Below are positions 505 to 19,541 of a DNA stretch of 32,000 bases, piece by piece. Under the pieces are notes generated by a model. That model did not search any database. It had not been told where the DNA came from and saw only the letters and a list, made by a program, of their open reading frames with translations. This stretch comes from an uncultured Opitutales bacterium (GTDB taxonomy: Bacteria > Verrucomicrobiota > Verrucomicrobiia > Opitutales > Intestinicryptomonadaceae), in assembly GCA_934660865.1 (NCBI GenBank), contig CAKUIA010000020.1, forward strand, positions 14,619 through 46,618, read 5' to 3'. The position numbers were made by a program, and so were the translations under genes. Every line of letters begins with the position of its first letter. Position 1 is the first letter of the stretch.

Positions 505-3500
505 TTACTTTCTGCGGCGGTATATCGCAAAGGCCAAAGCCAAAGCGCCGAATATTGCCGCCCATGTCGAAGGTTCGGGAACTTCGAATGTAACGTTAAA
601 GTTTGTGCCGTCTATCGAGAATGTGCCCTTGTATTTTTCCGACGTTTTTGCGTCTACATATTCGAATGTTTTGCCGGCCAACGACTTTAACGATTCGTTC
701 ATGTTCGCTTCGTCGGCAAACGAGATAAGCGTCATTTCAACATCAAGTTCTTCCATGTCGAAGCCCGAGAAGAAGAAGTCGGTGCTCAAAATGTTGCCGA
801 TTAGGGTGTTTTCGATATTGATTGTGTAGTCGGCCTGAGAGAAGTCGAAGGCCAGGTACCCGCCGTCGGCTTTGGTCAACGAATTAATATTCAACGAGCC
901 CGCAGCACCGAATGCCGCACCCGAAGCTATGGAAACATCGCCAACATTTGCGCTTGCAAGGAGCAATACGCCGCCGTTAACTGCAACCGAGCCGCCGTTA
1001 AGGTTGTTGTTTGTGCCCGAAAGAACCTGCGCATTTGTGCCCGTTTTTACAATGCTAATAGTGCTGTTTGTATTGTTGGCATAAATGTTGCCGGTGTATG
1101 TGCTTAACGAACCTACGTTGTTGCCGAACTGCAATGTGTAGTCTACATAACCGCCAGATTCGTTGCCGTAAATGCTGCCCGTACCGTTAAGGGTGCCTAT
1201 AACCGCCTTGTAGGCCGCTCTTTCTTCGGCTGTGCCCGTATACGAATAGCCAATCTTTAGGCGGCCGTCGTTCATGTTAAGTTCGCCGATATTTACGTTG
1301 TAGTCGGCCGACTTTGCAACACCGCGCAACTGCAACACGCCGTTTGCGTTAAGGGTTGCCTTGCCGATAGAGATATAGTCGCGGTCGTCGCCCGTGTTTG
1401 TGCCGTCTTTATTTACGGCGTATGTCGAGCCGTTCACCGTTACCCATACAGAATTTGCAGCGCTATCGGCGCCTATTGTCAATTCTTCGAAAGTGGTTTT
1501 TTCGAAGCTGTTGAATACGGTTTCGCAAGAACCGGCTTTGCTTGTGATATTGGCAGTGCCAAAATCCAAGTTCTTGGCCAGGAAATAACCGTTTTTATCG
1601 TTCTTATAGGCATAATTTATGTTCAAATTGTCTACCCTATAATCGGTACCATAGTAGCCTGCAACCGTGTTGTTGTACTCGTGGTCGACATTAAAAGCGG
1701 TTGTATCGATTACCAAGTTTTTAATTAAAATGCTGTGGGTATAGTGCGTGCCGAAGAAAATTCTCTGGCCGGATTTAAATGCACCTGTAAACTGTAAGTT
1801 GTCGATGGTTGCAACATTTGCAGTTGTTTTTGCCGTGTTAACGCGGGTTTGAACACTGTAGGTTGCGTCGGCAGTAGTTTCGCCGCCCTTAAGGACAAAT
1901 GTGCCAAAATGCGTTGTGGCAGTTGCCGCGTTAGAGGCGTTGCGGATATACAAATACTGATTGCCCAGCGTAGTGTCGCCTGCAAATGTAAGTTTGTTAA
2001 TGTCCAACTTATTGCCCGCCTTGATACGCGCGTGCCCCCAGTCTAGGTTGGCATTTGCATACGAGCTATCCAATTCGCCCATACCGCCAGCAATATTCAA
2101 TTCGTTTACATAAACGTCTTTGCCGTTTAGTTGGAAGAAATAGTCGCCGTAGGTCGAGCCGGGCACGCCGCCCGAATATTTGCCGTTACCTTTAAAGTTG
2201 ATAACGCCCAATATGTTAACGTCTGCCGAAGTGCCGCCGTCTACCTTGCTGCTAGAGGGGTTTATGTAGTTGATGTGGAACTTGTTTGTTTCGGCATTGA
2301 TAACGGCGTCGGCTGCCAATGTAAAGGCCGTGCCTTCGCTGCTTGTGGCAAACTGGCCGTCTTTAAACGTGGTTGTGCCGCTTAATGTGCCGCCGTAATA
2401 TTTAAGCAATGCGCCGTCGGTAAACGAAGCGTTTTCGGCAACGGCAGTGCCGCTCATATTCATCAAGCCGCCCTTTTGGGTGGAATTTACAAACTTGCCG
2501 CCGCTAAAGTGCGTTGTGCCGCCTACAATGGTTGTATCGCTTACAACTGCGCTGTCGTTGATATTTGTTGTACCTTCAACAGTTTCTTCGCCGTCGGTAA
2601 AGGTTTGCGTTATGGTTTTGCCGCTTGCCATAGAGGCGTTGGTTGTGCCCTTAATGGAAAGTGTACCGCGGTTGTTAATGTCGCCCAACAAATTGGCACT
2701 GGCAATATTGTTTATCAACAGGCTGCCGCCTTTGGCTATGTCTACATTGCCAATGTATGCGTTTTTAACTTCGCTGTCTATCTGCAAGGCCGAATTTGCG
2801 CCAACAGTAGAGGCCGCCAAAGAATTTAGCGTATAGCCGCTTTCGCTTTTGTCTACGCCAATTCTCAATTCGTTTATTGTACCCTGCCCGTTGCCGATTT
2901 TGAATGTTGCGGAGTTGTCGAAAGCAACGTCTACCCTGCCGAAATTGATGTAGTCGGCAGTTTTGCCTTTGTCGGTGTAAAATATAATGTTTTTGCCGCC
3001 GCCAATAGTCATTGTGTCGGCAACGTTCATTGTATTCTTGGAAGAATTTTCGCCTATAAAGTGGAATGTAAAGTTTGTATTTACATCGCTAGCGTTGCCG
3101 AAGAGATAGTCTTTTGCAAAGCTTATTGTTAAATTCTTTGCAAGAACATTGGCGCTGCCGTTGTGCAGACTCTGCAAAATTCTTTCCACATAGTTTGTTT
3201 TCGATACGGTTGTTTTTTCGGCGTCTTTATAGCCTGTTGTTACCATATCGTCGGTTGTGCCCTTTATCCAATACATCGGGTGCGAACCGTCGCCCGTTTG
3301 CCACGTTCCGTCTTCGTAAACCTGTTTCCAAGCGGCATCGTCGGCAACGTACTTATCGCCTTCGGTGTAGCCCGAAATTGTAACGTTGTCGTCAATAGTG
3401 GGGCTTCTGTGCACAGGATCTTTGTCTAGCACATAGTATTTTACGGTTGTGCCGTCTTCGTCGTAAACGGCAACGTATGTAGAGTCGGACGAATACCACA

Positions 3501-3624
3501 GCCTGCCGTCTCCATTATACGATGTATTGCCGTTGGCAATTTGCCTATATACTAAATCGGCACCCAAAGACACCGATGCTGCGGCTGCAAACACCGCAAA
3601 TATAGCTAATCTTGTTGTTTTCAT
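505..3624 (-). CDS. PEP-CTERM-anchored beta-helix surface protein, paralog 1 (1039 aa)
   Basis: Signal peptide MKTTRLAIFAVFAAAASVSLGA. The body is a G/N/T-rich repetitive beta-strand region. ISIVKTGTNAQVLSGTNNNLNGGSVAVNGGVLLLA resembles the autotransporter-associated beta-strand (PATR) repeat. The C-terminus VPEPSTWAAIFGALALAFAIYRRRK is a PEP-CTERM motif plus TM helix plus basic tail. It shares N-terminal (LAKNLT.SF) and C-terminal architecture with the ORFs at 19542 and 25526. Confidence 0.9.
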   Translation of the reverse strand: MKTTRLAIFAVFAAAASVSLGADLVYRQIANGNTSYNGDGRLWYSSDSTYVAVYDEDGTTVKYYVLDKDPVHRSPTIDDNVTISGYTEGDKYVADDAAWKQVYEDGTWQTGDGSHPMYWIKGTTDDMVTTGYKDAEKTTVSKTNYVERILQSLHNGSANVLAKNLTISFAKDYLFGNASDVNTNFTFHFIGENSSKNTMNVADTMTIGGGKNIIFYTDKGKTADYINFGRVDVAFDNSATFKIGNGQGTINELRIGVDKSESGYTLNSLAASTVGANSALQIDSEVKNAYIGNVDIAKGGSLLINNIASANLLGDINNRGTLSIKGTTNASMASGKTITQTFTDGEETVEGTTNINDSAVVSDTTIVGGTTHFSGGKFVNSTQKGGLMNMSGTAVAENASFTDGALLKYYGGTLSGTTTFKDGQFATSSEGTAFTLAADAVINAETNKFHINYINPSSSKVDGGTSADVNILGVINFKGNGKYSGGVPGSTYGDYFFQLNGKDVYVNELNIAGGMGELDSSYANANLDWGHARIKAGNKLDINKLTFAGDTTLGNQYLYIRNASNAATATTHFGTFVLKGGETTADATYSVQTRVNTAKTTANVATIDNLQFTGAFKSGQRIFFGTHYTHSILIKNLVIDTTAFNVDHEYNNTVAGYYGTDYRVDNLNINYAYKNDKNGYFLAKNLDFGTANITSKAGSCETVFNSFEKTTFEELTIGADSAANSVWVTVNGSTYAVNKDGTNTGDDRDYISIGKATLNANGVLQLRGVAKSADYNVNIGELNMNDGRLKIGYSYTGTAEERAAYKAVIGTLNGTGSIYGNESGGYVDYTLQFGNNVGSLSTYTGNIYANNTNSTISIVKTGTNAQVLSGTNNNLNGGSVAVNGGVLLLASANVGDVSIASGAAFGAAGSLNINSLTKADGGYLAFDFSQADYTINIENTLIGNILSTDFFFSGFDMEELDVEMTLISFADEANMNESLKSLAGKTFEYVDAKTSEKYKGTFSIDGTNFNVTFEVPEPSTWAAIFGALALAFAIYRRRK

Positions 3625-3705
3625 GTCGTTATTTATAAAATACGTATTTCTAGGATTGCGCGTATTTTTGACCGACCTACCTATTTTTGCAAGTATTTTT
3701 TATTC

Positions 3706-3720
3706 AAAAAAAAAAAAAAA
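3706..3720. repeat. A15 homopolymer (T15 in the orientation of the downstream gene), 82-96 nt upstream of the paralog 1 start codon
   Basis: Direct count: 5 A at 3706-3710 plus 10 A at 3711-3720. The flanks TTC and TGATT are the same as those of the A13 tract at 25421-25433. Confidence 0.9.
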
Positions 3721-3737
3721 TGATTAAAAAAATTACC

Positions 3738-3769
3738 CACGCTTTACTTTTAAAAAAAAGCAAAGCGTG
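3738..3769 (-). terminator. Strong hairpin, possible minus-strand terminator
   Basis: CACGCTTT (3738-3745) pairs with AAAGCGTG (3762-3769). The stem extends by CTTTT/AAAAG around an AAAA loop. On the minus strand it is followed by GGGTAA, then T7 (3726-3732), then T15. There is no T run on the plus side. Confidence 0.4.
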
Positions 3770-4140
3770 CAAAAACAAAGAAAGCCAACGGCATAACCGC
3801 ACAAGCCTACCCCACAAAAAACCTTGCCGCCCCAAAAAGGCAAAAAATTAGCCCTCTAAAAAACATACAAGCATGCCAAAGCCATAGTTAAAATTTTTAT
3901 CCCCCCAAAAAAACAAAAGAACACACCGCAATTAAAACGGAAAGTAAAACCCGCCGCAAAAAAGCTCGCATTGCCTAAACACGAAAATGCGCCCGCCGCA
4001 CACCCCCTACCCGCCCAAACAAAAGCCCGAATACCCTACCTTAAAATCGCCCCAAAATATGCCGATTTTTGCAAATACTTAGCATACACACCCACCCTTT
4101 TTTGCCCCCAAAACACCCCTTCCCCCAAAAGTCCATCAAA
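3770..4140. other. Non-coding, strand-asymmetric A+C-rich block with recurring CCCC(C)AAAA(A) motifs
   Basis: In 3781-3840, 47 of 60 nt are A or C. CCCCAAAA-type motifs occur near 3811, 3830, 3901, 4050, 4105 and 4122. The only ORFs here are low-complexity proline/lysine-rich shadows. Confidence 0.6.
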
Positions 4141-4190
4141 AAAGGTGGAACTTTCCACAAAAGTCGATGGACTTTTGTAAAAGTTTCCAC
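4127..4190. other. Nested hairpin with a third, competing repeat copy
   Basis: The outer stem is 11 bp and perfect: AAAAGTCCATC (4127-4137) with GATGGACTTTT (4166-4176). It encloses GTGGA-ACTT-TCCAC (4145-4158). A further GTTTCCAC at 4183-4190 could pair alternatively with 4144-4152. Confidence 0.5.
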
Positions 4191-4241
4191 TTTTTCCTAC
4201 CCACTTTTTCAAAAAAGTTTTTTAGGGCGGGTTAGGTACGC

Positions 4242-4272
4242 AAAAAGGCCGCAGGTAAAACTGCGGCCTTTT
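4242..4272 (-). terminator. Rho-independent terminator after the giant gene (symmetrical, could act in both directions)
   Basis: GGCCGCAG (4247-4254) pairs with CTGCGGCC (4261-4268) around a 6-nt loop. It is flanked by A5 on one side and by TTTTGGGGTTTTT on the other. It lies about 65 nt beyond the stop at 4337. Confidence 0.75.
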
Positions 4273-4336
4273 GGGGTTTTTAAGAGTGGTTGTTTTTTGC
4301 GCGGTGGTTAGCTTGCGCTATTTTTGCGCGCAAATA

Positions 4337-7300
4337 TTAAATTTCCCTTTCCGACAGCCAGCGGAACGACACCACCTTAAAGCGCCTGCCCAAGTATTTG
4401 TTGGACAAGTTGCCGTCGCTTAGCTCGGTGTATATCGTATCGTAGTCGGTCTTGTTCTGCGTGCCCAATTCCCTGTCGCGGTTTTCAATGTCGGTGGGGG
4501 CGTTTGCAACCGAGTCTACATATTCGGGATAACGCTGAACAACCATTTCGCACCAAGCTTTGCTTTCTATTGTGCCTGTAATGGGGTTGCGTATTTCGCC
4601 GTAGGCTCTAATCTTAAAGGTGTCGCCCCTTACGGTTATAAACGAGCCAATTTGCTGCAGAATATCGGCCTGGGTAAGATACGCCGAAGAACCCGCCAGC
4701 GAAGAGCCTAAAACGGCGCGGTAGTTTTCCCACGATTCGCGCGGGTCGCCCATATTAGACCAAATTTGCCCTAACGACGAAGCCGACGGGAAACTTCCGC
4801 AAACGGCAAGCGTCCAGTTGGCGGAGCGGTCGTCGTAGCTGGCTATTTTTGCAAAGCGCGAGTTTAGCGCGCTTTCGCCCAGCTCTATAAGATATGCCGA
4901 ATCGAAGAACGCTTCGTTTATTGTAGTCATATCTATTGCCGACTGCAACGCACCCTTTTGCATGTGGTTTTGCATAACGTAGAACGACTCTTTGTTTTCG
5001 TCTTTATTCACGTTAATTTTCGAGGCGTCGGCAAGGGCGTCGCCCGCGTAAAAGTCGTCGTTTAAGTCGTATACGCGCTGTTGGTGCATTCTCCTTACCT
5101 CGGCCGAGCGCATTTCAACCGTGCGGTTTACAAAGTCGGCCAAAGAGTAGAACGGGCCTCGGTCTTTTACGTTTTCTACCATCGAAAGCGCAAGCTCTTC
5201 AAGCTCTTCGGTGTCCAAAGCCCTGAAGTATGTCATGGCTTCTTCGGCGCTGTTGCTTATGGTAGAGCGGTCGAATTCCATACTCTTTGCGGGCAAACCG
5301 TTTCTCGGGAAAGGCGCTTTTTTGCCGATTTTCTTCGGCGAAGAGCTCTCCACACTCATAACCGAATCGCCAAAGCTTGTGGCCAAAACGGCTTTCCATG
5401 CGTCTACATCGGTAGAATTTACGTTGAAAGGCCCGTTAATCCACACCCTTGCTGCGTTTGCCTCGAAGTCTAGCTCGAGATTGCGCGAGTCGGAAACCGT
5501 GCTCTTTACATCGCCCCTTAGGTGCGGCACCTGAATGTCGGGGCCAAGAGGGTCTACATACTTCATGCGCGGGTTGCGCGGGTTCCAATAGTTGCGGTCC
5601 AGCCTTGTAGAGCGCTCTTCGGTTCTATAGGGTATGGTAGAGAAGAAGTATTCGTCCCACAAAACGTCGTTTAAGTGCCACGACAAGTCGTAGTTAATGC
5701 CCAAATATTCCGATTCTATTTGGAAAGTTCCGTTTCGCGTGGGCGAAGCGGTTGTTCCCTGCGCGCCGTCGCACCACCAAAAGTCGTATGTTCTTTCGGG
5801 AGCAATGCGCATATTGGCAAACGAGTTGCCTATTGAATATGTCGGGTACAAAATGTCGCCCGTGGCAACGCCGACACCCCAAGCCGAAAAGCCGCCTCGG
5901 CCGACTTCGGCGCCAAACGACAAGTCTGCCGAAGACAACTGCGCCATATTCGAAACAACTTCGTTTTCCCTTAAAAAGTGCCTCATGGGCAAGTCGTATG
6001 TGCTTGTAGAAGTCGGGTTCGGGCCAACTTGCGCCCTTTCGCCCAAATTTCTCAGCACGTTAATTGTTTTGTATATGTTTTGGCTGCCTGCATTTGTGCC
6101 GTCGCCCGAAAATTCTACCGCGGCATATTGCATATTGTTTAGGCGCCCAAAACGGCCGTGGCCTTCGCCGGTAAATATCTGCCCCGTACGCGGGCCGTAG
6201 CTGCTGTCGCGCAAAGAGCCGCCGCGGGCGTTGGTCGGGTCGCCGTAAAACTTGCCCGTTATGTTTGTGTTTGTTATATACGGGTATTTTAGCGGATACT
6301 GCGTCTGCCAGTCTACGGAGCCGTCGAGCCTTGTAGAAACCGGCCTATATGCGCTTACGCCAACCGACATAACAATGCGGTTACCGTTTTGCCCCGTAAA
6401 ATCTTTAATTGGCAAAGCCGCAGTGCTCGAGGCCGAAACTACAAAGGGAGTAAAGTTTTGGGGTTGGCGGTCGTAGCACTGCCCACCGCTTTGGTTGTCT
6501 TTATCCGTGGTATACGCCGTGCTCCAAAACGATGGGCTTATGCGGCGCGGGTCGGTAAAGAGGAAATTAAAGTCTTCCCAAAACCAGTAATTGTCAAATG
6601 GAACGTTCGACAACCCTGCTCTCTTTTTAAATTCTTTATAAAATTCATATTCATCAGCAAACGCCTCATTCCAATCGGGAACAGCTTCTTTAATCTTGCT
6701 CAATAAATATTCGTCGTACGGAGATCTGTTTGTTTTCCCATTGTCAGTCGACTGTAAATAAGGCTGAGAGAAAAAGCCCTTTAGATAGTTGCTTTCATAG
6801 CGTATCCCGGAGTAACCACTGCGTCGAACGTTGTAGCTTAAGCCCGCATGGCCGAACATGGTGTTTGCACCGCCAAGCATATTTGCCGCCCCTATGGCAC
6901 TGCCGCCCGTGCCGCCGTATCTCCACAAGGGGTGCTCGCCCCACGAAACTGTATCTTTTGACCAGTTCATTCTGGGGAAGGGGAAAGACGTTATGTTGTT
7001 GCCGCCCGTAGAATCCCAACAGTTTTGGTTAAGCAAATACCTTTTTAATGTTTGGAATGTTGCCGTGTTATAGGTGGCATTTGCCGTGCCATTGTCGGCT
7101 TCATACAATTTCACCTTGTTGTTGTCGTCGGAATAGTTCCACATCAAAAGGGGCGTTCTTTCTATACCCCAACTCAACGTATCGTTAAATGCGCCCAGCT
7201 TGCCCTTGTCGGGAATTTCCGTCATCGGGTTGTTGCTGCCAAGCCAATATTTGTCGTATCTATAATAGCCATAGGGCGAAGCAAGCACATCTATTCGTTG

Positions 7301-10018
7301 ATTGCCTGAATGAGGCACCATAGCCTCTGCATCGTAGTCTAACCTAATTTGACTAAGACTTACGGTTTCACTTGCAAAGCCGTCGTTGCTAGTGCCCAAA
7401 GCGTCGCTTGTATTGAACAATACGCCGAGGAATTTGTTGTCGGCTCCTTTATAGCCTTTATCGATTTCAAATGGATCCGTTTTAAAGGCAGGGCCTCTGT
7501 TAGTATTTGTCTCTGAACTGTCCCACATAATATTTGCATGCGCCCTTTCGGCGTGTAAAATATCTATGAAGAAACCGCCCATTTTGTTGCTGGAAATGCC
7601 CTCGGTTAGACACCAATCGTTTGGGTGCGATTTTTGCGCCCTGTAAAAGTTGCCCGCATACCCCGCAGCGTTGTTAAACTTAAGATTATAGGGCACAGAT
7701 TCTTTTAAAGAATATATTTTCGCCTGCCCCGGCTGCAACTCGCTAGAGTTTACCAAAAAGCGGAAGTTTACATCGTAGCCGTTGCCGTTGTCTACAATGG
7801 TGGCGTTGTTCACCCTACTTGTACTCATATAGCTCATAGAGCCGCGGCTAGACAAGGCCCTTTGCCCTACCCTTGCAATGGAGGTTTTTACATCGTTTAA
7901 ATAGAGCCTTCTAAAATAGAAAGAATCTCTGGTTAATACTTTAAACGATATATTCGCTGTTTTTGTAGTTTTCCCTCCTTCAGAATTGGGAACTTCATAT
8001 TCAAATGATAAAGACCTAGGTTCATAGAAACGTATTAGACCGCCATTCGTTGGATCGTTAGGAATATCACTATCGTATTTAAAGGTATCTTCCCAAGTCC
8101 ATGGGCCGTAGCCGAAATACGATTTATTCACGGTAGCGTCATTTTCTATCGTGACACCATTAGAAGAAGATCGAGGATTACGCCCCTCAAGAGCGGGAGG
8201 AACATAGCGATAGTGATTTAAAGCCCCACTATCGTATCCAGGCAAGGTCTTGTCGCCGCTGTTTGTAGTACCATTAATTTTTGAATTTATAATCGGGCGC
8301 GTGATTCTTTCGGTTCTGTAATCGCGTATGCACTGGAATACGTTGGTGCCTTTTAGATATCCTATAGCAACCCTTGAAGACGACAAAAAGCTTGAGTTTG
8401 CCGCACCTATTTGGAAAGCGTAAAAGTTTGCTTCTATCTTTGCGTCGTACGGGTTCCAAAGAACTACAATAGGAATGTAGTAGATTCTAACACCGTAATC
8501 GCCGTCGCTGTAATCCGTCAAAGCGGGAACAACCAACAGCTGGAAGTGCTGAAGCACGGGGCTTAGCCCTGTTGTAGTGTCGGTCTTTACCTTAACTTTG
8601 TTGTCGTACGAAGCGTTTGTACCCGTGCCCGTTTGGTCTACACGGGTGTTGTAGTAGCTGCGCAAAGAATCCCACAAAGGGCCGCCTGGGTCTTTATGCT
8701 GGCGCGCATAGCCGTATGTTTGCGTGTTGCCCGTATTGTAGTTTAGACCTCTGTAGTTAAGGTTAATGTCGTCGGCAGCCTGCGGGCCGAACATGTGGCC
8801 TGCGCCGTTTAGCTTGTTCTTTTGAAACTGGTTATATTCGCCCTGACGGTTGTGGAAATATGCGTCGTAGCCCTCTACACCGTAAGGACGCTCGAAATAG
8901 TTTGGGTTATAGGGGTCGTTATTAATGCGAAGCAGGCCAACGCTAAGGTCTTTTTTAAGGCCGCCTGCCCTTGTGTTTACCAAAAGCCCCTTTGTGCCGA
9001 AAGTTATGCTGTTAAAGAAAATCTTGCCCAAGCCTATGTTCGACGACGATTCGCTTAGCAAATCCAGCTGGGAAAGCTCGCCAACCTTTTTAAGCAGGTT
9101 GCGGTCGTCGCGGTTGTCCATATTAAAATTGAAGGCCTCCATTCTGGAATTCGGAATGGTTAACGCCGCCAAGCCCGAATTGTAGGGCATTTGCTGAAGC
9201 CTTATGCGGTTTTGGCCGCTGCTTGCGTCGGAATATTCGTCGTACGAGGCAACCGCGTCGGCCGAGGCCTTTTGCGATTCGTCGGAAACCCACCAGGCTA
9301 TTCTTGTTTCGTAGGGCGAAGCCGTTGTTCTTGCGGGATTTTCGGGTATGGTTACAAGGGGAACTTTTACGCGCATAGTTTGCGTGTCGAACGAGCCGTT
9401 CTCGTCGGTATACGAGTTTTTGCGAACCATGTTTATGTAGTTGTCGGTAAGGTCGTTGGTGGGCAAATGCTTTAGGGTTTCAGACCTGTCGCGTATTATG
9501 TTGTTGCCCGAAACCAAAAAGGTTATGGCCCCGCGCATTACGTCGTCGGAATAGTCTATGCGGCTTTGGTCGGGCCCGCGCCACAGTGGGTGCTTGCCCG
9601 GGGTGGAATTCCATACGCCAACCCAAAGCGGATTTGCAATGCCGTCTATGCGCTTGGCGCTTTGTCTGGAAAAATTGGGGTTTGCATTCCACCAATCGTA
9701 GTTTTTGTCGCTTTCTAAATCGTCAAAAACCGAGTCTAAACTTTGGTCTAAAATTGCGGCGTTGGCGGTTATTCTTTGGTCGGGGCCCAAAGTTTTTTGT
9801 ATTTCGCCCAATGCCTGATAGGCCGCAAAGCGGGCGGCCTGCTTGGCGCGCTGGTCCAGCATGGCCTGCTTGTTTGCCTTAAGTTCTATCTGTACAATAG
9901 CCGAAAGCGTTACCACCAATAAGACGAGAAACGCCATCAACGCAAGCGCAATAATAAGCGCAAAACCCTTCCTGTTTTTTGGGGAGCGGTGTTTCAATAA
10001 AGTAAAGTGTTTTTTCAT
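4337..10018 (-). CDS. Giant (1893 aa) protein with a GspK-like minor-pseudopilin N-terminus; resembles Verru_Chthon cassette protein A as I recall that family
   Basis: This is an uninterrupted 5.7-kb ORF. The N-terminus ...NRKG|FALIIALALMAFLVLLVVTL looks like a prepilin-type cleavage site followed by a hydrophobic helix, without Glu at +5, as in GspK. RIAWWVSDESQKA and the C-terminal ITVRGDTFKIRAYGE...AWCEMVVQRYPEYVD resemble GspK-like conserved blocks. The CDS call is solid; the family assignment comes from memory of motifs only. Confidence 0.8.
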   Translation of the reverse strand: MKKHFTLLKHRSPKNRKGFALIIALALMAFLVLLVVTLSAIVQIELKANKQAMLDQRAKQAARFAAYQALGEIQKTLGPDQRITANAAILDQSLDSVFDDLESDKNYDWWNANPNFSRQSAKRIDGIANPLWVGVWNSTPGKHPLWRGPDQSRIDYSDDVMRGAITFLVSGNNIIRDRSETLKHLPTNDLTDNYINMVRKNSYTDENGSFDTQTMRVKVPLVTIPENPARTTASPYETRIAWWVSDESQKASADAVASYDEYSDASSGQNRIRLQQMPYNSGLAALTIPNSRMEAFNFNMDNRDDRNLLKKVGELSQLDLLSESSSNIGLGKIFFNSITFGTKGLLVNTRAGGLKKDLSVGLLRINNDPYNPNYFERPYGVEGYDAYFHNRQGEYNQFQKNKLNGAGHMFGPQAADDINLNYRGLNYNTGNTQTYGYARQHKDPGGPLWDSLRSYYNTRVDQTGTGTNASYDNKVKVKTDTTTGLSPVLQHFQLLVVPALTDYSDGDYGVRIYYIPIVVLWNPYDAKIEANFYAFQIGAANSSFLSSSRVAIGYLKGTNVFQCIRDYRTERITRPIINSKINGTTNSGDKTLPGYDSGALNHYRYVPPALEGRNPRSSSNGVTIENDATVNKSYFGYGPWTWEDTFKYDSDIPNDPTNGGLIRFYEPRSLSFEYEVPNSEGGKTTKTANISFKVLTRDSFYFRRLYLNDVKTSIARVGQRALSSRGSMSYMSTSRVNNATIVDNGNGYDVNFRFLVNSSELQPGQAKIYSLKESVPYNLKFNNAAGYAGNFYRAQKSHPNDWCLTEGISSNKMGGFFIDILHAERAHANIMWDSSETNTNRGPAFKTDPFEIDKGYKGADNKFLGVLFNTSDALGTSNDGFASETVSLSQIRLDYDAEAMVPHSGNQRIDVLASPYGYYRYDKYWLGSNNPMTEIPDKGKLGAFNDTLSWGIERTPLLMWNYSDDNNKVKLYEADNGTANATYNTATFQTLKRYLLNQNCWDSTGGNNITSFPFPRMNWSKDTVSWGEHPLWRYGGTGGSAIGAANMLGGANTMFGHAGLSYNVRRSGYSGIRYESNYLKGFFSQPYLQSTDNGKTNRSPYDEYLLSKIKEAVPDWNEAFADEYEFYKEFKKRAGLSNVPFDNYWFWEDFNFLFTDPRRISPSFWSTAYTTDKDNQSGGQCYDRQPQNFTPFVVSASSTAALPIKDFTGQNGNRIVMSVGVSAYRPVSTRLDGSVDWQTQYPLKYPYITNTNITGKFYGDPTNARGGSLRDSSYGPRTGQIFTGEGHGRFGRLNNMQYAAVEFSGDGTNAGSQNIYKTINVLRNLGERAQVGPNPTSTSTYDLPMRHFLRENEVVSNMAQLSSADLSFGAEVGRGGFSAWGVGVATGDILYPTYSIGNSFANMRIAPERTYDFWWCDGAQGTTASPTRNGTFQIESEYLGINYDLSWHLNDVLWDEYFFSTIPYRTEERSTRLDRNYWNPRNPRMKYVDPLGPDIQVPHLRGDVKSTVSDSRNLELDFEANAARVWINGPFNVNSTDVDAWKAVLATSFGDSVMSVESSSPKKIGKKAPFPRNGLPAKSMEFDRSTISNSAEEAMTYFRALDTEELEELALSMVENVKDRGPFYSLADFVNRTVEMRSAEVRRMHQQRVYDLNDDFYAGDALADASKINVNKDENKESFYVMQNHMQKGALQSAIDMTTINEAFFDSAYLIELGESALNSRFAKIASYDDRSANWTLAVCGSFPSASSLGQIWSNMGDPRESWENYRAVLGSSLAGSSAYLTQADILQQIGSFITVRGDTFKIRAYGEIRNPITGTIESKAWCEMVVQRYPEYVDSVANAPTDIENRDRELGTQNKTDYDTIYTELSDGNLSNKYLGRRFKVVSFRWLSEREI

Positions 10019-10042
10019 TTGCGTTTAGAATAGTGTAAATAG

Positions 10043-10531
10043 TTGCCGTTTGACAAGCAATTTTTTGCCCGTGTTTGCGTTAAACGCTTAATATTTTTTA
10101 GCCGCTCTTTAACCATGCGCAGCGGCAAAAAGCGAAACGCACCCGACAAGCCGTACAGCCAAAAAAATTGGGAAGTCTGCACTTGGCAAAAGCCCGTATA
10201 TTTGGGCAATGACGGGCGCTTCGGCGTTGTAGGGCGCCCCTGTTGCACGCGCGACGAAGCCTCGATTGCGGCGGTTGAAAGCGGCGGATTTTTGGCGAAC
10301 TCGGAAAAACTAAGCCAAACCCGGCCAAGCGGCGAGAAAGGAACCTATGTAAAAGCCAACTGGAACAGAGTGCTGTGCGACAGTTCCGACCCCGCAACGG
10401 TTAAGCTCGACTACATTTTCGTTTCGAAGCCCGTAAAGGTGCTTTCGTGCAGTGTTTTGGCCGACAATCGAAAGGGGCATTATCCGTCCGACCACAGGCC
10501 GATTATGGCGGTTGTTAAAATCTTAAAATAG
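10043..10531 (+). pseudogene. Probable 5'-truncated remnant of an endonuclease/exonuclease/phosphatase (EEP) family gene
   Basis: Only the C-terminal part looks EEP-like: VKLDYIFVSKPVKVLSCSVLADNRKGHYPSDHRPIMAVVKI, with the SDH.P motif. The upstream 100 codons lack the usual catalytic blocks such as GDFN. The ORF begins 25 nt from the giant gene start. Confidence 0.45.
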
Positions 10532-10588
10532 AATCTAATTGGGCGACTTTTTAGATAAACCCCAAAGAGAGCGGGGGTTCAGCCAAAA

Positions 10589-10624
10589 GGGGCTTAAAAA
10601 ACTGTTTGCACTAAGCCCCGTTTT
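10589..10624 (+). terminator. Hairpin plus T run between the EEP remnant and folA
   Basis: GGGGCTTA (10589-10596) pairs with TAAGCCCC (10612-10619) and is followed by GTTTT. A second, weaker hairpin AACCCC...GGGGGTT lies at about 10558-10579. Confidence 0.5.
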
Positions 10625-10644
10625 GCGCCATAAAGCGTGCCCAT

Positions 10645-11118
10645 ATGAAATACAAAGCAATAGCGGCCGCCGACGAAAACATGCTTATAGGCAACGGACT
10701 TGAGATTCCGTGGCACATAGCCGACGACTTTAAGCACTTTAAAAGCACCACAATGGGCGGCGTAATTTTGTTCGGCAAAAACACATGGCTAAGCTTGGGC
10801 AAACGCCCGCTAAAAGGCAGGCTAAACGCGGTTTTAAGCCGTTCTTTAACCGAAACGCCCCCCGAAAACGCAATGTATTTTAAAAGCAAGGCCGATTTCG
10901 ACAAATATTTTGAAAACGACCCGCGCGATGTGTGGATTTGCGGCGGAGCGAATATTTACAAGCAGTTTTTGCCCGACTGTTCCGAAATTATTTTAAGCAA
11001 AATAAAGGGCAAATTTAATGGCGACACGTTTTTTCCCGATATATCGAAAAGCTTTGCGCAAAGCGAAATTTTGCTGGAACACCCGCAGTTTACCGTCGTA
11101 AGACTTAAACGCATTTAG
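10645..11118 (+). CDS. folA: Dihydrofolate reductase
   Basis: 157 aa. MKYKAIAAADENMLIGNGLEIPWHIADDFKHFKSTTMGGVILFGKNTWLSLGKRPLKGRLNAVLSRS follows the DHFR pattern: IG...(L/I)PW, F+..T, G+.T..S(L/I) and PL.gR.N.VLSR. Confidence 0.9.
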   Translation: MKYKAIAAADENMLIGNGLEIPWHIADDFKHFKSTTMGGVILFGKNTWLSLGKRPLKGRLNAVLSRSLTETPPENAMYFKSKADFDKYFENDPRDVWICGGANIYKQFLPDCSEIILSKIKGKFNGDTFFPDISKSFAQSEILLEHPQFTVVRLKRI

Positions 11119-11300
11119 CGCAAAGCCCTTGCGGCGCAAAATGCCGCGCTTTTTGCGGGGTTTTGCCGCAACGGTTAAAAATTTATTAAATTTTCAAAAT
11201 ATTTGTAATAAAAAGCTTGCATTTTGCAACTTAGCACAGACAATACACTCTTTTATATAAAACAGGTATACCAAATATACTTTCATTGAAAGGATAAAAA

Positions 11301-11705
11301 ATGCCTATCAAACACAGAACACCTAGAAGAAACGCAGTAAAGAGCGCAGAAACCAAGGCCGCCGCAAAAGCGACGACTGTTAAAAAAACCGCTGCTGCGG
11401 CAAAAAAGCCCGCAAAAGCTAAAAAATGCGATTGCACTTTGGGCGACGCAAAATTGACCATTGTTGTGGCCAAGATAGACGCCGGTTGGGGCAACAGCCT
11501 CTACATTAGGGGTCAGGGCGCGGGTCTTAGCTGGGACAAAGGCGTGCTAATGCAGTGCGTAGGCGACCAGGAATGGATTTGGGAAAAGAAAAACGTTAAG
11601 GAAAACTTCGAATTTAAATTCCTGCTTAACGACACCGTTTGGGCCGAAGGCGAAAACATTGCAGGCCAGCCCGACGAAATCCGCACATACTACCCCAAGT
11701 TCTAG
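11301..11705 (+). CDS. Small protein with a Lys/Ala-rich histone H1-like N-terminal tail and a CBM20-like (starch/glycogen-binding) beta-sandwich domain
   Basis: 134 aa, with AGGA 8 nt upstream of the ATG. The tail is KAAAKATTVKKTAAAAKKPAKAKK. The C-terminal LTIVVAKIDAGWGNSLYIRGQGAGLSWDKG...WIW...FEFKFLLNDTVWAEGEN follows the CBM20 pattern G..(L/I)Y(L/I/V).G....L(G/S).W ... W ... (F/Y)E(F/Y)KF ... V.WE.G.N. Confidence 0.75.
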   Translation: MPIKHRTPRRNAVKSAETKAAAKATTVKKTAAAAKKPAKAKKCDCTLGDAKLTIVVAKIDAGWGNSLYIRGQGAGLSWDKGVLMQCVGDQEWIWEKKNVKENFEFKFLLNDTVWAEGENIAGQPDEIRTYYPKF

Positions 11706-11734
11706 TATCTGCACAAAATATTTACAAAAACAAA

Positions 11735-11766
11735 CCCCACGGGCTTTGCCGCCTGCGGGGTTTTTT
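11735..11766 (+). terminator. Rho-independent terminator after the CBM20-like gene
   Basis: CCCCACGGGC (11735-11744) pairs with GCCTGCGGGG (11751-11760), with one mismatch and one G-U pair. A 6-nt loop is followed by T6 at 11761-11766. Confidence 0.7.
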
Positions 11767-11881
11767 GTTTTTTAAAAATTCCCGAAAAAAATCTTTGCGC
11801 ATTAAGCTTTGCAAACTTGCGCGACAAAAATTTTTAAAGATTGCGCATTAAAGCGGCGCAAAAAAACGCCCTTAAAAAAGG

Positions 11882-13234
11882 CTACTTTTTAAACACGGCG
11901 TAGCCGGCGCCGTCGTTATCGGCGGCAGGCATAACTATGGCGCTTTCAATCAATTTTGCGCTTTTGGCAAATTCGGCAACGTTTTCGGTATTTTCAAGCG
12001 CGTCTATCGAGCACGTAGAATATACAATAACCCCGCCCTTTTTTACGAAATTAAGCGCCTTAAAAAACATCTGCCTTTGAATTTCGGCACAGTTTTGTAT
12101 GTCGGATTCGGTTAGGCGGTATCTGGCGTCGGCGCGGCGGCCAAGCACGCCCGTGTTCGAGCAGGGGGCGTCTAAAAACACAATGTCGTATTGCAAAGGC
12201 AATGCCGAATCTTCAAGTTTGGCGGCCATATCGTCTTTTAACAAGTCGAACGCAACTTGCTTTGTTTTTAAATTGGAGAACTTGCGCACCGCAAAATTGG
12301 CCTTAAGCGTTTCGAACCTTTTGTTGGGCAAATCGCAACTTACCAAAAGCGAAGCCGTGTTTTTTTCGGCATTCTTTTGGTTTAAAATATCGGCAATATA
12401 GGCGCTTTTGCCGCCGGGGGCTGCGCACAAGTCTAAAACGTTTTGCCCCGCGCAAAAGGAAACCGCATTTACGGCAAAGCTTGTAGATGGGTCTTGCGCG
12501 TAGGCGTAGCCATTTTTAAGCATAAACAAAACGTCGTTAAACCTTTGGGGCTTTACGGCGTAAAAATCGGCAAAAGGCGTCGGCAAAAAGGCGTCTTTTG
12601 CCTGCAAAAAAGCGTTGTGCGCTTCCGGCGAACGCGCCAGCCTAAAATATACCGATTTTTGGGAATGAAAATCCTTTAAAATTTTTAGCGTCTTTTCTTC
12701 GCCAAACTGCGCTTTAAAACGCTTTGCAAGCCATAGCGGCATTGAATACAACAAGGCATAATCTTCAATGTTTTTCGAATTTTTCCTTAAGGTATCCAAA
12801 TAGTCCAAAAATTTTCTTTGGGCTGCATTTACAAGTTTGGATTCGGGCACGCTAAAGAGCGCCTTTGCCGAATTTACGGAATAGTCGGCGCGCTTGCAGG
12901 CTTTATCGTATTGACAATCAACCAGTTGCGAGCACGCCATACACAGGTACGCATAAAGCTTGGCCTTAGGCTTTTTATGCAAAAAGCCGCCCAAAAAGTG
13001 TTCAGTAAGCCCTTTGTTTCGCAGAAAATCTAAAAAGATACATTGACAAACCCGCCTTTCTTCTGTGTTGTAGTGTATAGAATTATAGTGAGTTGCTATA
13101 GCCGTATCGCTTTTGCCGCCGCGGTTAATGTGGTTCATTATCAACTCCAACGCCGACAATGCGGCTTTTTCGGCGGCGCAGTTTGCTCCGTTATTAAGGG
13201 CTTTGTTCATTTTCGGTTGAGGGAAAATGTACAA
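11882..13234 (-). CDS. rsmB: 16S rRNA (cytosine-C5)-methyltransferase, NOL1/NOP2/Sun family (RsmB-like)
   Basis: 450 aa. SAM-binding motif DLCAAPGGKSAYIA, catalytic PC motif FLDAPCSNTGVLGRRADARYR and TC motif VYSTCSI. There is a NusB-like helical N-terminal region. The true start may be the Met at aa 9 (13210). Confidence 0.85.
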   Translation of the reverse strand: MYIFPQPKMNKALNNGANCAAEKAALSALELIMNHINRGGKSDTAIATHYNSIHYNTEERRVCQCIFLDFLRNKGLTEHFLGGFLHKKPKAKLYAYLCMACSQLVDCQYDKACKRADYSVNSAKALFSVPESKLVNAAQRKFLDYLDTLRKNSKNIEDYALLYSMPLWLAKRFKAQFGEEKTLKILKDFHSQKSVYFRLARSPEAHNAFLQAKDAFLPTPFADFYAVKPQRFNDVLFMLKNGYAYAQDPSTSFAVNAVSFCAGQNVLDLCAAPGGKSAYIADILNQKNAEKNTASLLVSCDLPNKRFETLKANFAVRKFSNLKTKQVAFDLLKDDMAAKLEDSALPLQYDIVFLDAPCSNTGVLGRRADARYRLTESDIQNCAEIQRQMFFKALNFVKKGGVIVYSTCSIDALENTENVAEFAKSAKLIESAIVMPAADNDGAGYAVFKK

Positions 13235-13293
13235 AATTTTCCCGATTACAACAAAAAAATTTCAAAACAAACAAAAAATCGCAGGTAAAATAT

Positions 13294-15441: not shown

Positions 15442-16548
15442 CTACAAGCTCTCGGTAAGAGAAAGCAGGTCTTTTAGGTAATACACTGTTTTTGCACGCC
15501 CCGCCCCCTTTTCGTATACTGATATGATTTTTTTCTCCGACAATTTTTGCAGAAGATTATACATTGTAGCTTTCGAAGGCTTGCTGGAAACCTTTAGCGA
15601 CGATTGCGTAAACATGGGGTTTGCAACCATCGCGTCTAGCAGTGGCACCGCATGTTGCGACGAAGTTGCGCCGATAATCTCCGACTTGGTTTTTTCGTAG
15701 TAGCCTATTATGTCTTTGGCAATTTTATAGTTTTTGTCGGCCTGCCATTTTATCGCGTCCAAGAAAAACTCTATCCACTGCGTCCAGTTGCCGAGGGCGG
15801 TTATGGCGCGCAAAGAGTCTTTATAGGCCATTTCGTTTTTATCCAAATATTGGCTTATATATAGCGACGGCGTTGCAATAATATTTTTCTTGTACAAAAA
15901 CAAAGGAACAAGCATTCGCCCAAGTCTGCCGTTGCCGTCGCAAAACGGGTGTATTATCTCGAACTGCGCATGCAAAACGGCGGTTTGCGCCAAAAGGTCT
16001 TTGTCGTTTATGCAAAGGTAGTCTATAAAATTATCCATATATTCGGGCACAATAAGAGGGTCGGGCGGAACATAGCGCGCGTTTTCTATACCGCCGCTTT
16101 TCGAGCCTATATAGTTTTGAATTTCCCTTATTTTGCCAGGGCTTTTAGACTTGCCGCGAACGCCGTCCAATAAAATCGTGTGTAACTCCTTTATCAACGA
16201 AAGCGAAATCGAGCGGTTTTCCAACGATTCGGTACCGTGTATAAGAGCCTTTTTGTAGTTCAGAACTTCGTGAATATCGTCTTTTTTTTCTTCCGAATCG
16301 TCTCCTATGTTTGCCTGATATTTCAAAACGTCTATAGTATCGGCTTGCGTTCCCTCTATTTTGCTAGACAATACCGCTTCGTTGTCGACAAGCGGCGAAA
16401 GCAGCAAGTTGGCGTTTGGCATTACATTTAAAATGCCGTTAAAATTCGACACCGCTCTATTCGCCTCGCCCATTTTCGGTACAAGACTAGTCCAATCTAT
16501 AGAATTCAAGGGAAGTTTTTGCGGAATAAAAGGTTTCATTATACCCAT
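15442..16548 (-). CDS. Fic family protein 1 (class II, AMPylase-type motif) with a C-terminal winged-helix domain
   Basis: The Fic motif HPFCDGNGRLGR fits H.F.(D/E)GNGR..R. The N-terminal inhibitory-helix motif SSKIEG fits (S/T)xxxE(G/N). The C-terminal KATMYNLLQKLSEKKIISVYEKGAGRAKTVYYL looks like a wHTH. I prefer the ATG at 16548 (MGIMKPF) or 16539, because the 25 extra codons of the tracked ORF (to 16623) merely read through the palindrome array. Confidence 0.85.
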   Translation of the reverse strand: MGIMKPFIPQKLPLNSIDWTSLVPKMGEANRAVSNFNGILNVMPNANLLLSPLVDNEAVLSSKIEGTQADTIDVLKYQANIGDDSEEKKDDIHEVLNYKKALIHGTESLENRSISLSLIKELHTILLDGVRGKSKSPGKIREIQNYIGSKSGGIENARYVPPDPLIVPEYMDNFIDYLCINDKDLLAQTAVLHAQFEIIHPFCDGNGRLGRMLVPLFLYKKNIIATPSLYISQYLDKNEMAYKDSLRAITALGNWTQWIEFFLDAIKWQADKNYKIAKDIIGYYEKTKSEIIGATSSQHAVPLLDAMVANPMFTQSSLKVSSKPSKATMYNLLQKLSEKKIISVYEKGAGRAKTVYYLKDLLSLTESL

Positions 16549-16567
16549 AATATACAATAATCGGCGC

Positions 16568-16788: not shown

Positions 16789-16831
16789 ATAAAATCGGGC
16801 GCGCAAAACTTTTAAACGGTTTTTGCAAAAA

Positions 16832-19497: not shown

Positions 19498-19541
19498 GGA
19501 AGGGCAAAAACAATAATAGCTAATTGTATATACACAAGATT

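Follow-up and report, generated by a model that had tools for sequence, protein, structure and literature searches.

A giant protein with a GspK-like N-terminus from an uncultured Opitutales bacterium is a long-form, partner-less variant of a large Verrucomicrobiota family

Results

The gene and its surroundings

The DNA analysed here (the window) is a 32-kb stretch from an uncultured gut Opitutales bacterium. It contains a complete coding sequence (CDS) of 1,893 codons plus a stop codon, with an ATG start on the minus strand, exactly as the first-pass annotation had described it (Table 1). A chance open reading frame is excluded, as the protein retrieved 85 homologues, including full-length relatives with 86 % and 42 % identity. 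Genes in two Opitutales MAGs encode proteins 86-87 % identical to it. Judged from its sequence, the CDS is a long-form, partner-less variant of a very large Verrucomicrobiota family of pilin-headed giant proteins.

The non-coding block of about 700 bp reported on one side of the gene measures 712 bp, and all ORFs in it are 80 aa or shorter; the longest, 4069..4311, had no Pfam match. At the 86 %-identical MAG loci the equivalent spacer is 1.9 kb long, with an AAA_14/DUF4143 gene encoded on the opposite strand. The hairpin within the spacer of the window is terminator-like in either direction, consistent with a monocistronic gene. On the other side of the gene a truncated EEP remnant had been proposed; the candidate, 10043..10531, matched PF03372 weakly and with the C-terminal end only (E 0.036).

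Eighteen of the larger ORFs of the window, a count that excludes the giant CDS and includes 10098..10397 and 10611..10904 as overlapping alternatives on the opposite strand, were scanned with Pfam. The matches comprised PEP-CTERM proteins, DHFR, RsmB, GreA, Fic, Wzy_C, AraC, HtrA and DUF5696, and no ATPase, secretin or peptidase was found among these ORFs. In a six-frame motif scan of the 32 kb the prepilin-like N-terminus of the giant protein was the sole one. These scans agree with the earlier observation that no pilin, ATPase, secretin or prepilin peptidase flanks the gene. An Rfam scan of the entire window at the gathering threshold gave no match.

Table 1 Features of the giant gene and its flanks (window coordinates)
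Feature	Position	Strand	Basis or remark
CDS, complete, 1,893 aa + stop, ATG start	4337..10018	(-)	long-form member of the Verrucomicrobiota 'A-like' family
Leader, aa 1-18 (MKKHFTLLKHRSPKNRKG), basic, ends in Gly18	9965..10018	(-)	sequence and family census
Pilin-type alpha-1 helix, aa 19-77	9788..9964	(-)	AF2, hhalign to GspK, NF037980 match
N module, conserved, aa 1-570	8309..10018	(-)	family alignments
Long-form insert, ~775 aa, aa 571-1344	5987..8308	(-)	profile comparison
FFIDILHAERAH, aa 816-827, D-x2-H-x-E-x2-H	7538..7573	(-)	alignment of long forms
C module, conserved, aa 1345-1893	4340..5986	(-)	family alignments, AF2
Spacer, 712 bp, no credible gene, no remnant of the partner gene that is usual in the family	3625..4336	(.)	ORF and partner-gene search
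GC-rich 12-bp hairpin between A and T runs, 65 nt beyond the stop codon	4243..4272	(.)	consensus match only
Sigma-70-like promoter match (TTGTCA, 18 nt, TATTCT), ending 9 nt 5' of the ATG	10027..10056	(-)	consensus only, 9/12

The N-terminal region

The protein begins with MKKHFTLLKHRSPKNRKG/FALIIALALMAFLVLLVVTLSAIV (KNRKG/FALII..., the slash marking the Gly18/Phe19 junction) and has Ile, not Glu, at position +5. This is the prepilin-site geometry without Glu+5 noted in the first-pass annotation, and G18/F19 is a putative prepilin-peptidase site. In a census of 193 relatives, position -1 was Gly in 81 % and Ala in 17 % (together 98 %), +1 was Phe in 97 % and +3 Leu in 96 %, and none had Glu+5. 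Among the long forms, Ala replaced Gly at -1 in 25 of 36. The hydrophobic half of the predicted alpha-1 helix covers aa 19-42 (about 24 residues, with Ile23 as +5), and the helix is followed by an invariant GPDQRITA (aa 78-85). AF2 modelled a helix at residues 18-77 with pLDDT values of 79-97.

The proposed GspK-like character of the N-terminus was borne out when the family profile was aligned with a GspK profile in hhalign (probability 93.5 %, E 2.3e-7, 66 columns, columns 14-79). Of 220 family proteins, 212 had an N-terminal match to a GspK HMM (best i-E 9e-11). When 40 homologues were scanned with NCBIfam (18,950 models), only GspK (26/40), TIGR02600 (23/40, best E 2.7e-10) and ComGE (2/40) were matched, and GspK and TIGR02600 alone recurred in short homologues. 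With Pfam, PilX_N matched 12 of 40 homologues, always below its cutoff (best E 0.006), and T2SSK matched one of 40 (E 0.038) and not the window protein.

On the window protein itself, the GspK model NF037980 scored 13.6 bits against a cutoff of 130, over aa 17-66 only, and TIGR02600 gave no match at E<=1. Homologues aligned residue by residue to TIGR02600 reached 13.6-20.5 bits over model positions 1-60 only, the cutoff being 332.3 over 1,296 positions. Since the matches are far below the cutoffs and confined to the N-terminus, the protein belongs to neither GspK nor Verru_Chthon cassette protein A (TIGR02600). In the HMM check that had been suggested (TIGR02600, GspK PF03934, N_methyl PF07963), the window protein reached no cutoff, but the sub-cutoff N-terminal GspK match was obtained. 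TIGR02532 and PF07963 (N_methyl, G/F-x-x-x-E motif) did not match the window protein; the signature is missing because there is no Glu+5, which agrees with expectation for cap-type subunits. By sequence comparison the N-terminus is of the GspK/PilX (filament-cap) class, with significant similarity, and this likeness is demonstrable for the first ~65-100 residues only.

Modules and predicted structure of the body

The body consists of N and C modules common to the family, between which the long forms have an added insert. The motif noted in the first reading was located in the N module (RIAWWVSDESQKA, aa 239-251, nt 9266-9304), which also contains GGLKKDL (aa 352-358) and LWNPYD (aa 520-525). 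The C module holds GPFNVNSTDVDAWKAVL (aa 1529-1545) and the helix-hairpin-helix-like LALSMVENVKDRGPFYSLADFVNR (aa 1609-1632). Its terminal strands are ...TVRGDTFKIRAYGE (to aa 1808), AWCEMVVQRYPEYVD (aa 1821-1835) and LGRRFKVVSFRWL (aa 1876-1888); the C-terminal block noted earlier was found here, with FKIRAYGE within aa 1782-1808 and VVQRYPEYVD within aa 1821-1835.

The insert is homologous among relatives of ~1,750-2,070 aa to about aa 1160, and its profile had no match at E<=1e-3 in any form of ~1,100-1,400 aa. These shorter forms have a ~350-aa middle of their own, which has a PGE..F[SA] motif in common with the insert. AF2 modelling of the insert (aa 561-1354, 32-sequence alignment) gave a pLDDT of 39 and a pTM of 0.40. 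In the motif FFIDILHAERAH, D819, H822 and E824 are invariant and H827 nearly so across 32 long forms, and its D-x2-H-x-E-x2-H pattern may be a metal-binding site.

The joined N and C modules were modelled with a pTM of 0.83 and are predicted to pack into one body. In Foldseek this model had no PDB match at E<=0.001; the top match was GspK (3ci0_K, E=1.3, TM 0.16), with XcpX (5vtm_X) at rank 7 and 9a1f_T, a chain of an XcpGHIJK pseudopilus model, at rank 20. Against a 38-sequence GspK profile the C module gave E values of 0.03-0.14 and a probability of about 1-2 % (HMM and hhalign), and the rest of the N module only non-significant motif matches (hhalign and hmmsearch). The order of motifs is collinear with that of GspK, also without significance: DE..K...N corresponds to D.Q..FNLN, FNVNST to INvNT and TVRGDTFKIR to l.v.S.yF. 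Beyond the helix, neither sequence nor fold similarity to GspK was significant by HMM, hhalign or Foldseek. No Pfam or NCBIfam model reached its cutoff on the 1,893-aa protein. Searches with the whole protein and the family profile gave nothing above threshold in Pfam or NCBIfam and no PDB sequence match, in line with the earlier statement that most of the protein is without recognisable motifs.

The family and its gene neighbourhoods

A profile of the conserved parts matched 6,538 clusters (50 % identity) at E<=1e-3. Most members have 1,100-1,350 aa, and the window protein belongs to the long form of ~1,750-2,070 aa. The description of the protein as an orphan is thus correct for its neighbourhood but not for its sequence. 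In UniRef two homologues are named 'cassette protein A' and one 'PilX N-terminal'. Cerasicoccus, Puniceicoccus and Luteolibacter are cultured carriers of the family, and several short-form loci sit among glycan-degrading genes. A full-text literature search on 'Verru_Chthon cassette' returned no papers, and a broader pseudopilin/Verrucomicrobia search returned nothing on this family.

Directly downstream of the homologue, 69 of 83 loci have a gene for a ~250-aa protein with a Sec signal. This usual partner, overlooked in the first-pass annotation, is missing from all five loci of the window clade. A decayed partner gene was found neither in the 712-bp spacer nor in the equivalent spacers of relatives, and the giant ORF was likewise found to contain no fused partner domain. 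The partner family had no Pfam or PDB match.

Prepilin genes were present in one of 51 family loci with at least 2.5 kb downstream, locus L081 being a second case with a shorter flank. At the distant locus L012 the partner gene comes directly after the homologue, and after it come three prepilin-type genes (sites A/FSLLE, A/FSLVE and A/FTLVE) with weak matches to GspH/cassette D, PilV/cassette B and GspI/cassette C. The order is the same at L081, also distant, where the first pilin scored above the Pfam GspH cutoff and the contig ends after the second pilin-like gene. The earlier lead to cassette protein A was therefore productive in that A-like genes do occur with prepilin-type genes at these two loci, but it does not extend to TIGR02600 membership of the window protein. 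The closest relatives of the window gene have no pilin, ATPase, secretin or peptidase genes nearby. As a lack of pilus neighbours is the family norm, it does not mark the window gene out.

Discussion

The explanation we prefer, and to which we give about an even chance, is that the window protein is a cap-type minor pilin without Glu5, carrying a ~200-kDa body and using machinery encoded elsewhere. The protein would insert into the inner membrane and have most of its mass outside the cytoplasm, and a prepilin peptidase encoded elsewhere would cut after Gly18. Together with GspH/I/J-like minor pilins, also encoded elsewhere, it would prime and cap a type IV filament, either a short pseudopilus or a pilus. 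Glu5 would be dispensable in a cap subunit, since there is no subunit above it with which to form a salt bridge. The part on display that does the work would be the ~200-kDa body with its insert, and its most plausible task is ligand binding. Display at the tip, and a role as adhesin or enzyme, are what we infer and no more than that.

The GspK-type N-terminus, GspK as the top fold match, the collinear motifs, the contexts of L012 and L081 and the precedent of modular pilins all speak for a cap. Against it, nothing is significantly GspK-like beyond about the first 100 residues, the window and its closest relatives are without pilus genes nearby, prepilin neighbours are rare across the family, the conserved neighbour is a Sec-signal protein and not a pilin, and Ala prevails at -1 in the long forms. 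At ~205 kDa, a globular cap would exceed the largest modular pilin of a 2021 survey (860 aa; PMC8179133) by a factor of more than two, and it may be too bulky for a secretin channel.

Several of these points favour the main rival explanation, an envelope protein anchored by a pilin helix outside any filament, which we regard as a serious possibility somewhat short of an even chance. The N-terminal helix would then be a signal-anchor, cleaved or not, and the body would be periplasmic or at the surface, accompanied in most lineages by the Sec-exported ~250-aa partner. The frequency of that partner and the rarity of pilin neighbours agree with this, as do the non-significant evidence for a pilin fold past the helix and a body very large for a filament cap, and the short-form loci among glycan-degrading genes would fit substrate capture. 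Class III signal peptides on non-filament surface proteins of Sulfolobus are documented (PMC3047682); an anchored protein would resemble the archaeal sugar-binding proteins that have such signal peptides without being flagellum or pilus subunits. However, the near-invariant Gly/Ala-Phe-Ala-Leu junction is required by a prepilin peptidase but not by a plain anchor, the similarity is specifically with the cap pseudopilin GspK and not with generic transmembrane helices, and L012 and L081 place the family beside GspH-, PilV/GspI- and cassette C-like pilins. It is also conceivable, although we consider it rather unlikely, that the family is an unrecognised two-component envelope system of Verrucomicrobiota that borrows only the cap-pseudopilin head and serves either at filament tips, as a giant module, or independently of filaments, as a substrate-capture machine. 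In the long forms the role of the partner would have been replaced by the ~775-aa insert with its D-x2-H-x-E-x2-H site, possibly catalytic or metal-binding.

An ordinary Sec-secreted exoprotein (adhesin, toxin or enzyme), whose normal, cleavable signal peptide would be only superficially like a pilin leader, appears improbable. The N-terminus does have a basic n-region and a hydrophobic h-region, and the large neighbours in the window are exported PEP-CTERM proteins, but a small-x-small cleavage site is missing after the h-region (TLSA/IV, with Leu at -3). Instead, the hydrophobic stretch passes into a helix of 60 residues, predicted with confidence, whose conservation reaches far beyond any signal peptidase I site. 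Conservation peaks where the n- and h-regions meet (G-F-A-L), a pattern typical of class III signals but not of class I signals, and the GspK match in hhalign is significant. We give hardly any weight to a degenerating or non-functional gene, in which the giant ORF would be a relic in a clade without the partner gene. Such decay could account for the loss of the partner from the whole clade and for the indels that distinguish the flanks of close relatives, but the 5.7-kb frame is intact in the window and in the relatives at 86 % and 42 % identity, and all family-invariant residues are kept. Full-length partner-less genes in lineages only 42 % identical indicate long-term selection.

If the family members are true filament caps, they would exceed all known pilin-type subunits in size by a wide margin, and Verrucomicrobiota, including gut Opitutales, would display modules of ~130-220 kDa via type IV filament machinery. 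Signature-based surveys miss such proteins, as without Glu5 they have no N_methyl signature. The family is very large and unstudied, and the partner gene that accompanies it at most loci is unstudied as well; prepilin-type genes are found at two loci. Cultured carriers exist, so that bench tests are feasible. Taken by itself, the window gives a modest result: its hypothetical protein is well conserved, the head can now be classified, and the body is still unexplained and the function unproven.

Comparison with known systems

There are documented cases of modular pilins with grafted modules on display, and in GspK, too, a domain is inserted in the pilin sheet (PMC8179133). The window protein is similar to modular pilins and tip proteins (PilB/PilC of S. 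sanguinis, CofB of ETEC, ComZ of Thermus, and the non-pilin PilY1/PilC) in the proposed display of a bulky module at the tip via a pilin module (PMC8179133). In those proteins, however, the pilin domain that carries the module, as an appendage or as an insertion, is recognisable and has Glu5 or a known fold, whereas the body of the window protein is without a recognisable domain and the TIGR02532 N_methyl signature was not detected. A PilY1/PilC tip adhesin was rejected, as there was no such Pfam match (C-terminal PilY1 beta-propeller) and the N-terminus is pilin-like.

PilX-type minor pilins of type IVa pili (PF14341, PilX_N) also lack Glu5. They are thought to sit at the filament tip. The window family differs from them in being far larger and in lacking the fimU-pilVWXY1E context.

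Cassette protein A (TIGR02600) is likewise verrucomicrobial and similar in size (1,296 model positions compared to 1,100-1,350 aa in the short forms), and a pilin-like N-terminal region is present in the window protein and its homologues. At L012 and L081 the A-like genes are followed by D-, B- and C-like prepilin genes (at L081, two before the contig end). In contrast, the B, C and D genes (TIGR02598, TIGR02599, TIGR02596) are absent from the window and from beside the closest relatives, most family members are followed by the extra partner gene, which is outside the described four-gene cassette, and the long form has the ~775-aa insert.

The nearest systems are GspK and XcpX, minor pseudopilins of type II secretion (NF037980, PF21687 and PF03934; 3CI0 chain K, 5VTM chain X). 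GspK has a pilin fold whose beta-sheet carries two inserted SAM/HhH-like domains. The window protein is about six times larger (1,893 aa compared to ~320 aa), its gene lies outside any gsp operon, as do the relatives' loci examined, and the usual neighbour in the family, absent in the window clade, is a Sec-signal protein. The order of body motifs is nevertheless similar, the matches being non-significant: DE..K...N, (F/I)NVN(S/T), a helix-hairpin-helix-like A..IV..V..RGPF.S..F and terminal strands. GspK and the window protein alike lack Glu+5 and start with a Gly-terminated leader that is followed by a hydrophobic alpha-1 helix, and the insert of the window protein may correspond to the foreign domain inserted in the pilin body of GspK.

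Reading frame and family

The giant gene at window 4337..10018 (-) is one ORF of 1,893 codons with an ATG start. Its product (the window protein) has the N-terminus MKKHFTLLKHRSPKNRKG|FALIIALALMAFLVLLVVTLSAIV, with Gly18 and Phe19 at the putative junction and Ile, not Glu, at +5. This prepilin-like N-terminus without Glu at +5 and the motifs quoted in the first-pass annotation were all found as claimed. A promoter-like site ends 9 nt 5' of the ATG and a GC-rich 12-bp hairpin lies 65 nt past the stop, both being consensus matches only; they would fit a monocistronic gene. In Pfam and NCBIfam scans of the window protein no model reached its cutoff, the sole notable match being to GspK (NF037980; aa 17-66, 13.6 bits, E 0.035).

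The gene had been described as an orphan, which is true of its gene neighbourhood but not of its sequence. Genes of two uncultured Opitutales MAGs, of which one came from a gut sample of the Hadza, are 86-87% identical to it. A word-indexed search with the window protein gave 85 homologues, which fall into three tiers. The first is a single protein at 86% identity and the second comprises four full-length ones at about 42%; the third holds about 27 further long proteins of 1,741-2,072 aa and about 50 of 1,094-1,400 aa, with named sources including Cerasicoccus, Puniceicoccus, Luteolibacter, Haloferula, Rariglobus and Terrimicrobiaceae. According to BLAST and HMM mapping, an N module (aa 1-570) and a C module (aa 1345-1893) are present in all homologues, and the middle is variable. 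When a profile of the two modules was searched against 1.84 billion cluster representatives, 6,538 proteins matched at E<=1e-3 and 3,993 at E<=1e-30; the best 150 of the 6,538 were mostly 1,100-1,350 aa long. Judged by sequence, the window protein belongs to the long forms of a family, here called A-like, that is very large and unannotated; literature searches found no papers on it.

Pilin-like head

Among 193 relatives in which the junction could be located, position -1 was Gly (81%) or Ala (17%), +1 was Phe (97%), +2 Ala (90%) and +3 Leu (96%), and none had Glu at +5. Ala occupied -1 in 25 of 36 long forms, whereas Gly did so in 145 of 157 short forms; the window protein retains Gly, unlike most long forms. 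Such a conservation peak at the boundary of basic and hydrophobic residues is the signature of a putative prepilin-peptidase site and is not seen in Sec signal peptides. GspK is reportedly, from work by Korotkov and Hol in 2008, a cap subunit without Glu5 and with a domain inserted in the pilin sheet.

The proposed GspK-like pseudopilin N-terminus was borne out by profile comparison. With an alignment of 38 GspK sequences, collected by a search that started from E. coli K-12 GspK, the family profile aligned by hhalign over 66 N-terminal columns (Prob 93.5%, E 2.3e-7), and in 212 of 220 family proteins the GspK HMM matched the N-terminus. Of the 18,950 NCBIfam models, those that recurred in short homologues were GspK (26/40), TIGR02600 (23/40) and ComGE (2/40) alone, and PilX_N (12/40) was the sole recurrent Pfam family in homologues. 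An AF2 model of a chimera that joins aa 1-570 to aa 1345-1893, made with a 54-sequence alignment (pTM 0.83, mean pLDDT 72), shows residues 18-77 with confidence as one helix of 60 residues. The head resembles a pilin, and what supports this is specific to pilins of the cap type.

Body and insert

Outside the helix, the GspK HMM and hhalign gave no significant match. Two segments of a collinear set aligned below threshold, namely FNVNST with INvNT of GspK (E 0.14) and LTQ..TVRGDTFKIRAYGE with the C-terminal 'l.v.S.yF' strand (E 0.03); by eye, WWVSDESQKA resembles the D.Q..FNLN strand and LA..MVENVKDRGPFYSLADFVNR the helix-hairpin-helix segment of GspK. Foldseek of the N+C model against the PDB (350,542 chains) returned nothing at E<=0.001. 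Its top hit was GspK (3ci0_K; E 1.3, TM 0.16), with XcpX (5vtm_X) at rank 7 and 9a1f_T, a chain of the XcpGHIJK pseudopilus model, at rank 20. That the pre-specified GspK should come first among all chains is suggestive, although the match itself is poor, and a pilin topology of the body is plausible.

The long-form insert (aa 571-1344), whose AF2 model is of low confidence (pLDDT 39), is conserved as far as about aa 1160 among the long forms. In its D-x2-H-x-E-x2-H motif D819, H822 and E824 are invariant and H827 nearly so. The motif may be a metal site and differs from the zincin HEXXH.

Coordinates of features in the window and in fetched homologue loci (L numbers)
Feature	Locus	Position	Remark
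Motif RIAWWVSDESQKA	window protein	aa 239-251	
Motif FKIRAYGE	window protein	ends aa 1808	
Motif VVQRYPEYVD	window protein	ends aa 1835	
Motif FFIDILHAERAH (D-x2-H-x-E-x2-H)	window	7538-7573, aa 816-827	consensus FYxDVPHPExEH
PEP-CTERM paralogues	window	505-3624 (-), 19524-22376 (+), 25526-28342 (+)	~950-1,040 aa, 28-30% identical
Partner gene	L004	15737-16495	
Partner gene	L005	11794-12552	
Partner genes	L006	11555-12361, 1654-2382	
Partner genes	L010	11641-12408, 12473-13159	
Partner genes	L011	6997-7656, 11466-12152	
Partner genes	many of L013-L092		
Cassette	L012 (Terrimicrobiaceae)	8001-14446	A-like, partner, three prepilin-type genes
Cassette	L081	7-4559	same order as L012; contig ends after second pilin-like gene

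Window neighbourhood

Pfam scans of 18 of the larger window ORFs besides the giant gene (two being overlapping opposite-strand alternatives) matched PEP-CTERM (three paralogous proteins of ~1,000 aa), DHFR, RsmB, a long GreA, two Fic, Wzy_C, an AraC regulator, HtrA and DUF5696. A six-frame motif scan of the 32 kb found no other prepilin-like N-terminus, which together with the Pfam scans upholds the claim of a neighbourhood without pilins. The adjacent 712-bp block 3625..4336, taken to be non-coding, indeed holds no credible ORF. The 'EEP remnant' at 10043..10531 has weak support, a match to the C-terminal end of PF03372 only (E 0.036).

The spacer 3' of the giant gene differs among close relatives: window 3625-4336 has ~150 bp in common with the L007/L008 spacer (15674-17599), which carries an opposite-strand gene for a 445-aa AAA_14/DUF4143 (NERD-like) ATPase. 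The EEP-like fragment sits in a ~500-bp stretch (10098-10596) without equivalent in L007 or L008, where the flanks are 64 bp apart; this stretch is either an insertion specific to the window or a deletion in the relatives. One of the PEP-CTERM genes directly follows the giant gene, and L001 has a different PEP-CTERM protein at the same position (16131-18251), possibly by chance, such genes being common here.

Elsewhere in the window, a 686-aa protein (13294-15354, +) has GreA/GreB domains confined to aa 536-682, and its ~530-aa N-terminal extension had no Pfam match. Two Fic/DOC-domain genes, 15442-16623 (-; also with Fic_N) and 22947-24293 (+), are less than 8 kb apart. A tandem array at 16555-16808, of four ~71-nt units each made of inverted copies TTAGACACAAA / TTTGTGTCTAA, overlaps the 5' end of the first Fic ORF (listed with a TTG start) and extends to just before ORF 16832-17989. 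Its conservation in L007 and L008 is ~80%, and it resembles a multi-operator or a structured element of another kind.

Partner gene and prepilin cassettes

Ten loci fetched around named homologues and 80 more metagenome loci were searched with a profile of nine proteins encoded downstream of A-like genes. The partner gene that it detects (~220-290 aa, Sec-type signal peptide, motif like PPGSFKxxNLS) directly follows the A-like gene in the same orientation in 69 of the 83 loci with at least 900 bp downstream, is sometimes duplicated, and had no match in Pfam or PDB. It is missing from the window and from the four loci most closely related to it (L001, L003, L007, L008), where neither a remnant in the spacer nor a copy fused into the giant ORF was found; other long forms (L004, L013) keep it. 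Short-form A-like/partner pairs often stand amid glycan-related genes: the flanks of L005, L006, L011 and L012 encode alpha-amylase, PA14/CBM9 giant proteins, GH20, polysaccharide lyase 14, GH28, GH43 and a trehalase-like GH, a setting that hints at polysaccharide capture or use.

Of the 51 loci whose downstream flank is 2.5 kb or longer, one (L012) has prepilin-type genes adjoining the A-like gene; L081, with a shorter flank, has them too. The L012 prepilins begin A|FSLLE, A|FSLVE and A|FTLVE. The first of them scores above the TIGR02532 cutoff, and the weak matches of the three were to GspH/XpsH and cassette D, PilV and cassette B, and GspI/HpsC and cassette C (B, C and D being the small prepilin-type Verru_Chthon proteins). 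The first L081 pilin passes the Pfam GspH gathering score. The cassette is a possible complete minor-pilin set; at least some family members are thus encoded with a set of minor pilins, in which the A-like protein would take the GspK position.

Proposed filament cap or anchored envelope protein

The established parts are the GspK/PilX-type head, the conserved N and C modules, the long-form insert, the solitary gene and the occasional cassette context; the two modules are predicted to form one body. The protein would be inserted in the membrane with its body outside the cytoplasm, be processed after Gly18 by a prepilin peptidase whose gene lies elsewhere, and assemble with GspH/I/J-like minor pilins into a type IV filament as its cap, so displaying a ~200-kDa body. 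The cap features of GspK, i.e. no Glu5 and a domain inserted in the pilin sheet, are summarised in PMC8179133.

The main rival is an envelope protein anchored by the pilin helix and never part of a filament, for which the Sulfolobus sugar-binding proteins with class III signal peptides offer a comparison (PMC3047682). The size of the body, the lack of nearby pilus genes in most family members, a conserved neighbour that is a Sec-type partner and not a pilin, and the Ala at -1 of most long forms speak against a cap. The L012 pilins also use Ala at -1, which suggests that the local peptidase accepts it.

Comparison with known systems

Two homologues bear the source name 'Verru_Chthon cassette protein A' (annotation only). 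The window protein is not a cassette protein A: the curated TIGR02600 score was missed by a wide margin, with matches covering the head only. GspK membership was rejected likewise, its curated score being missed widely by a match restricted to the head. We rate the window protein as representing a branch, long-form and without the partner, of a verrucomicrobial family that is uncharacterised and has the head of a cap pseudopilin. Of more interest than the window gene is the family-level pattern of size, two-gene module and rare five-gene cassettes. To a GspK/PilX cap or a modular pilin the window protein is alike at most in its way of working.
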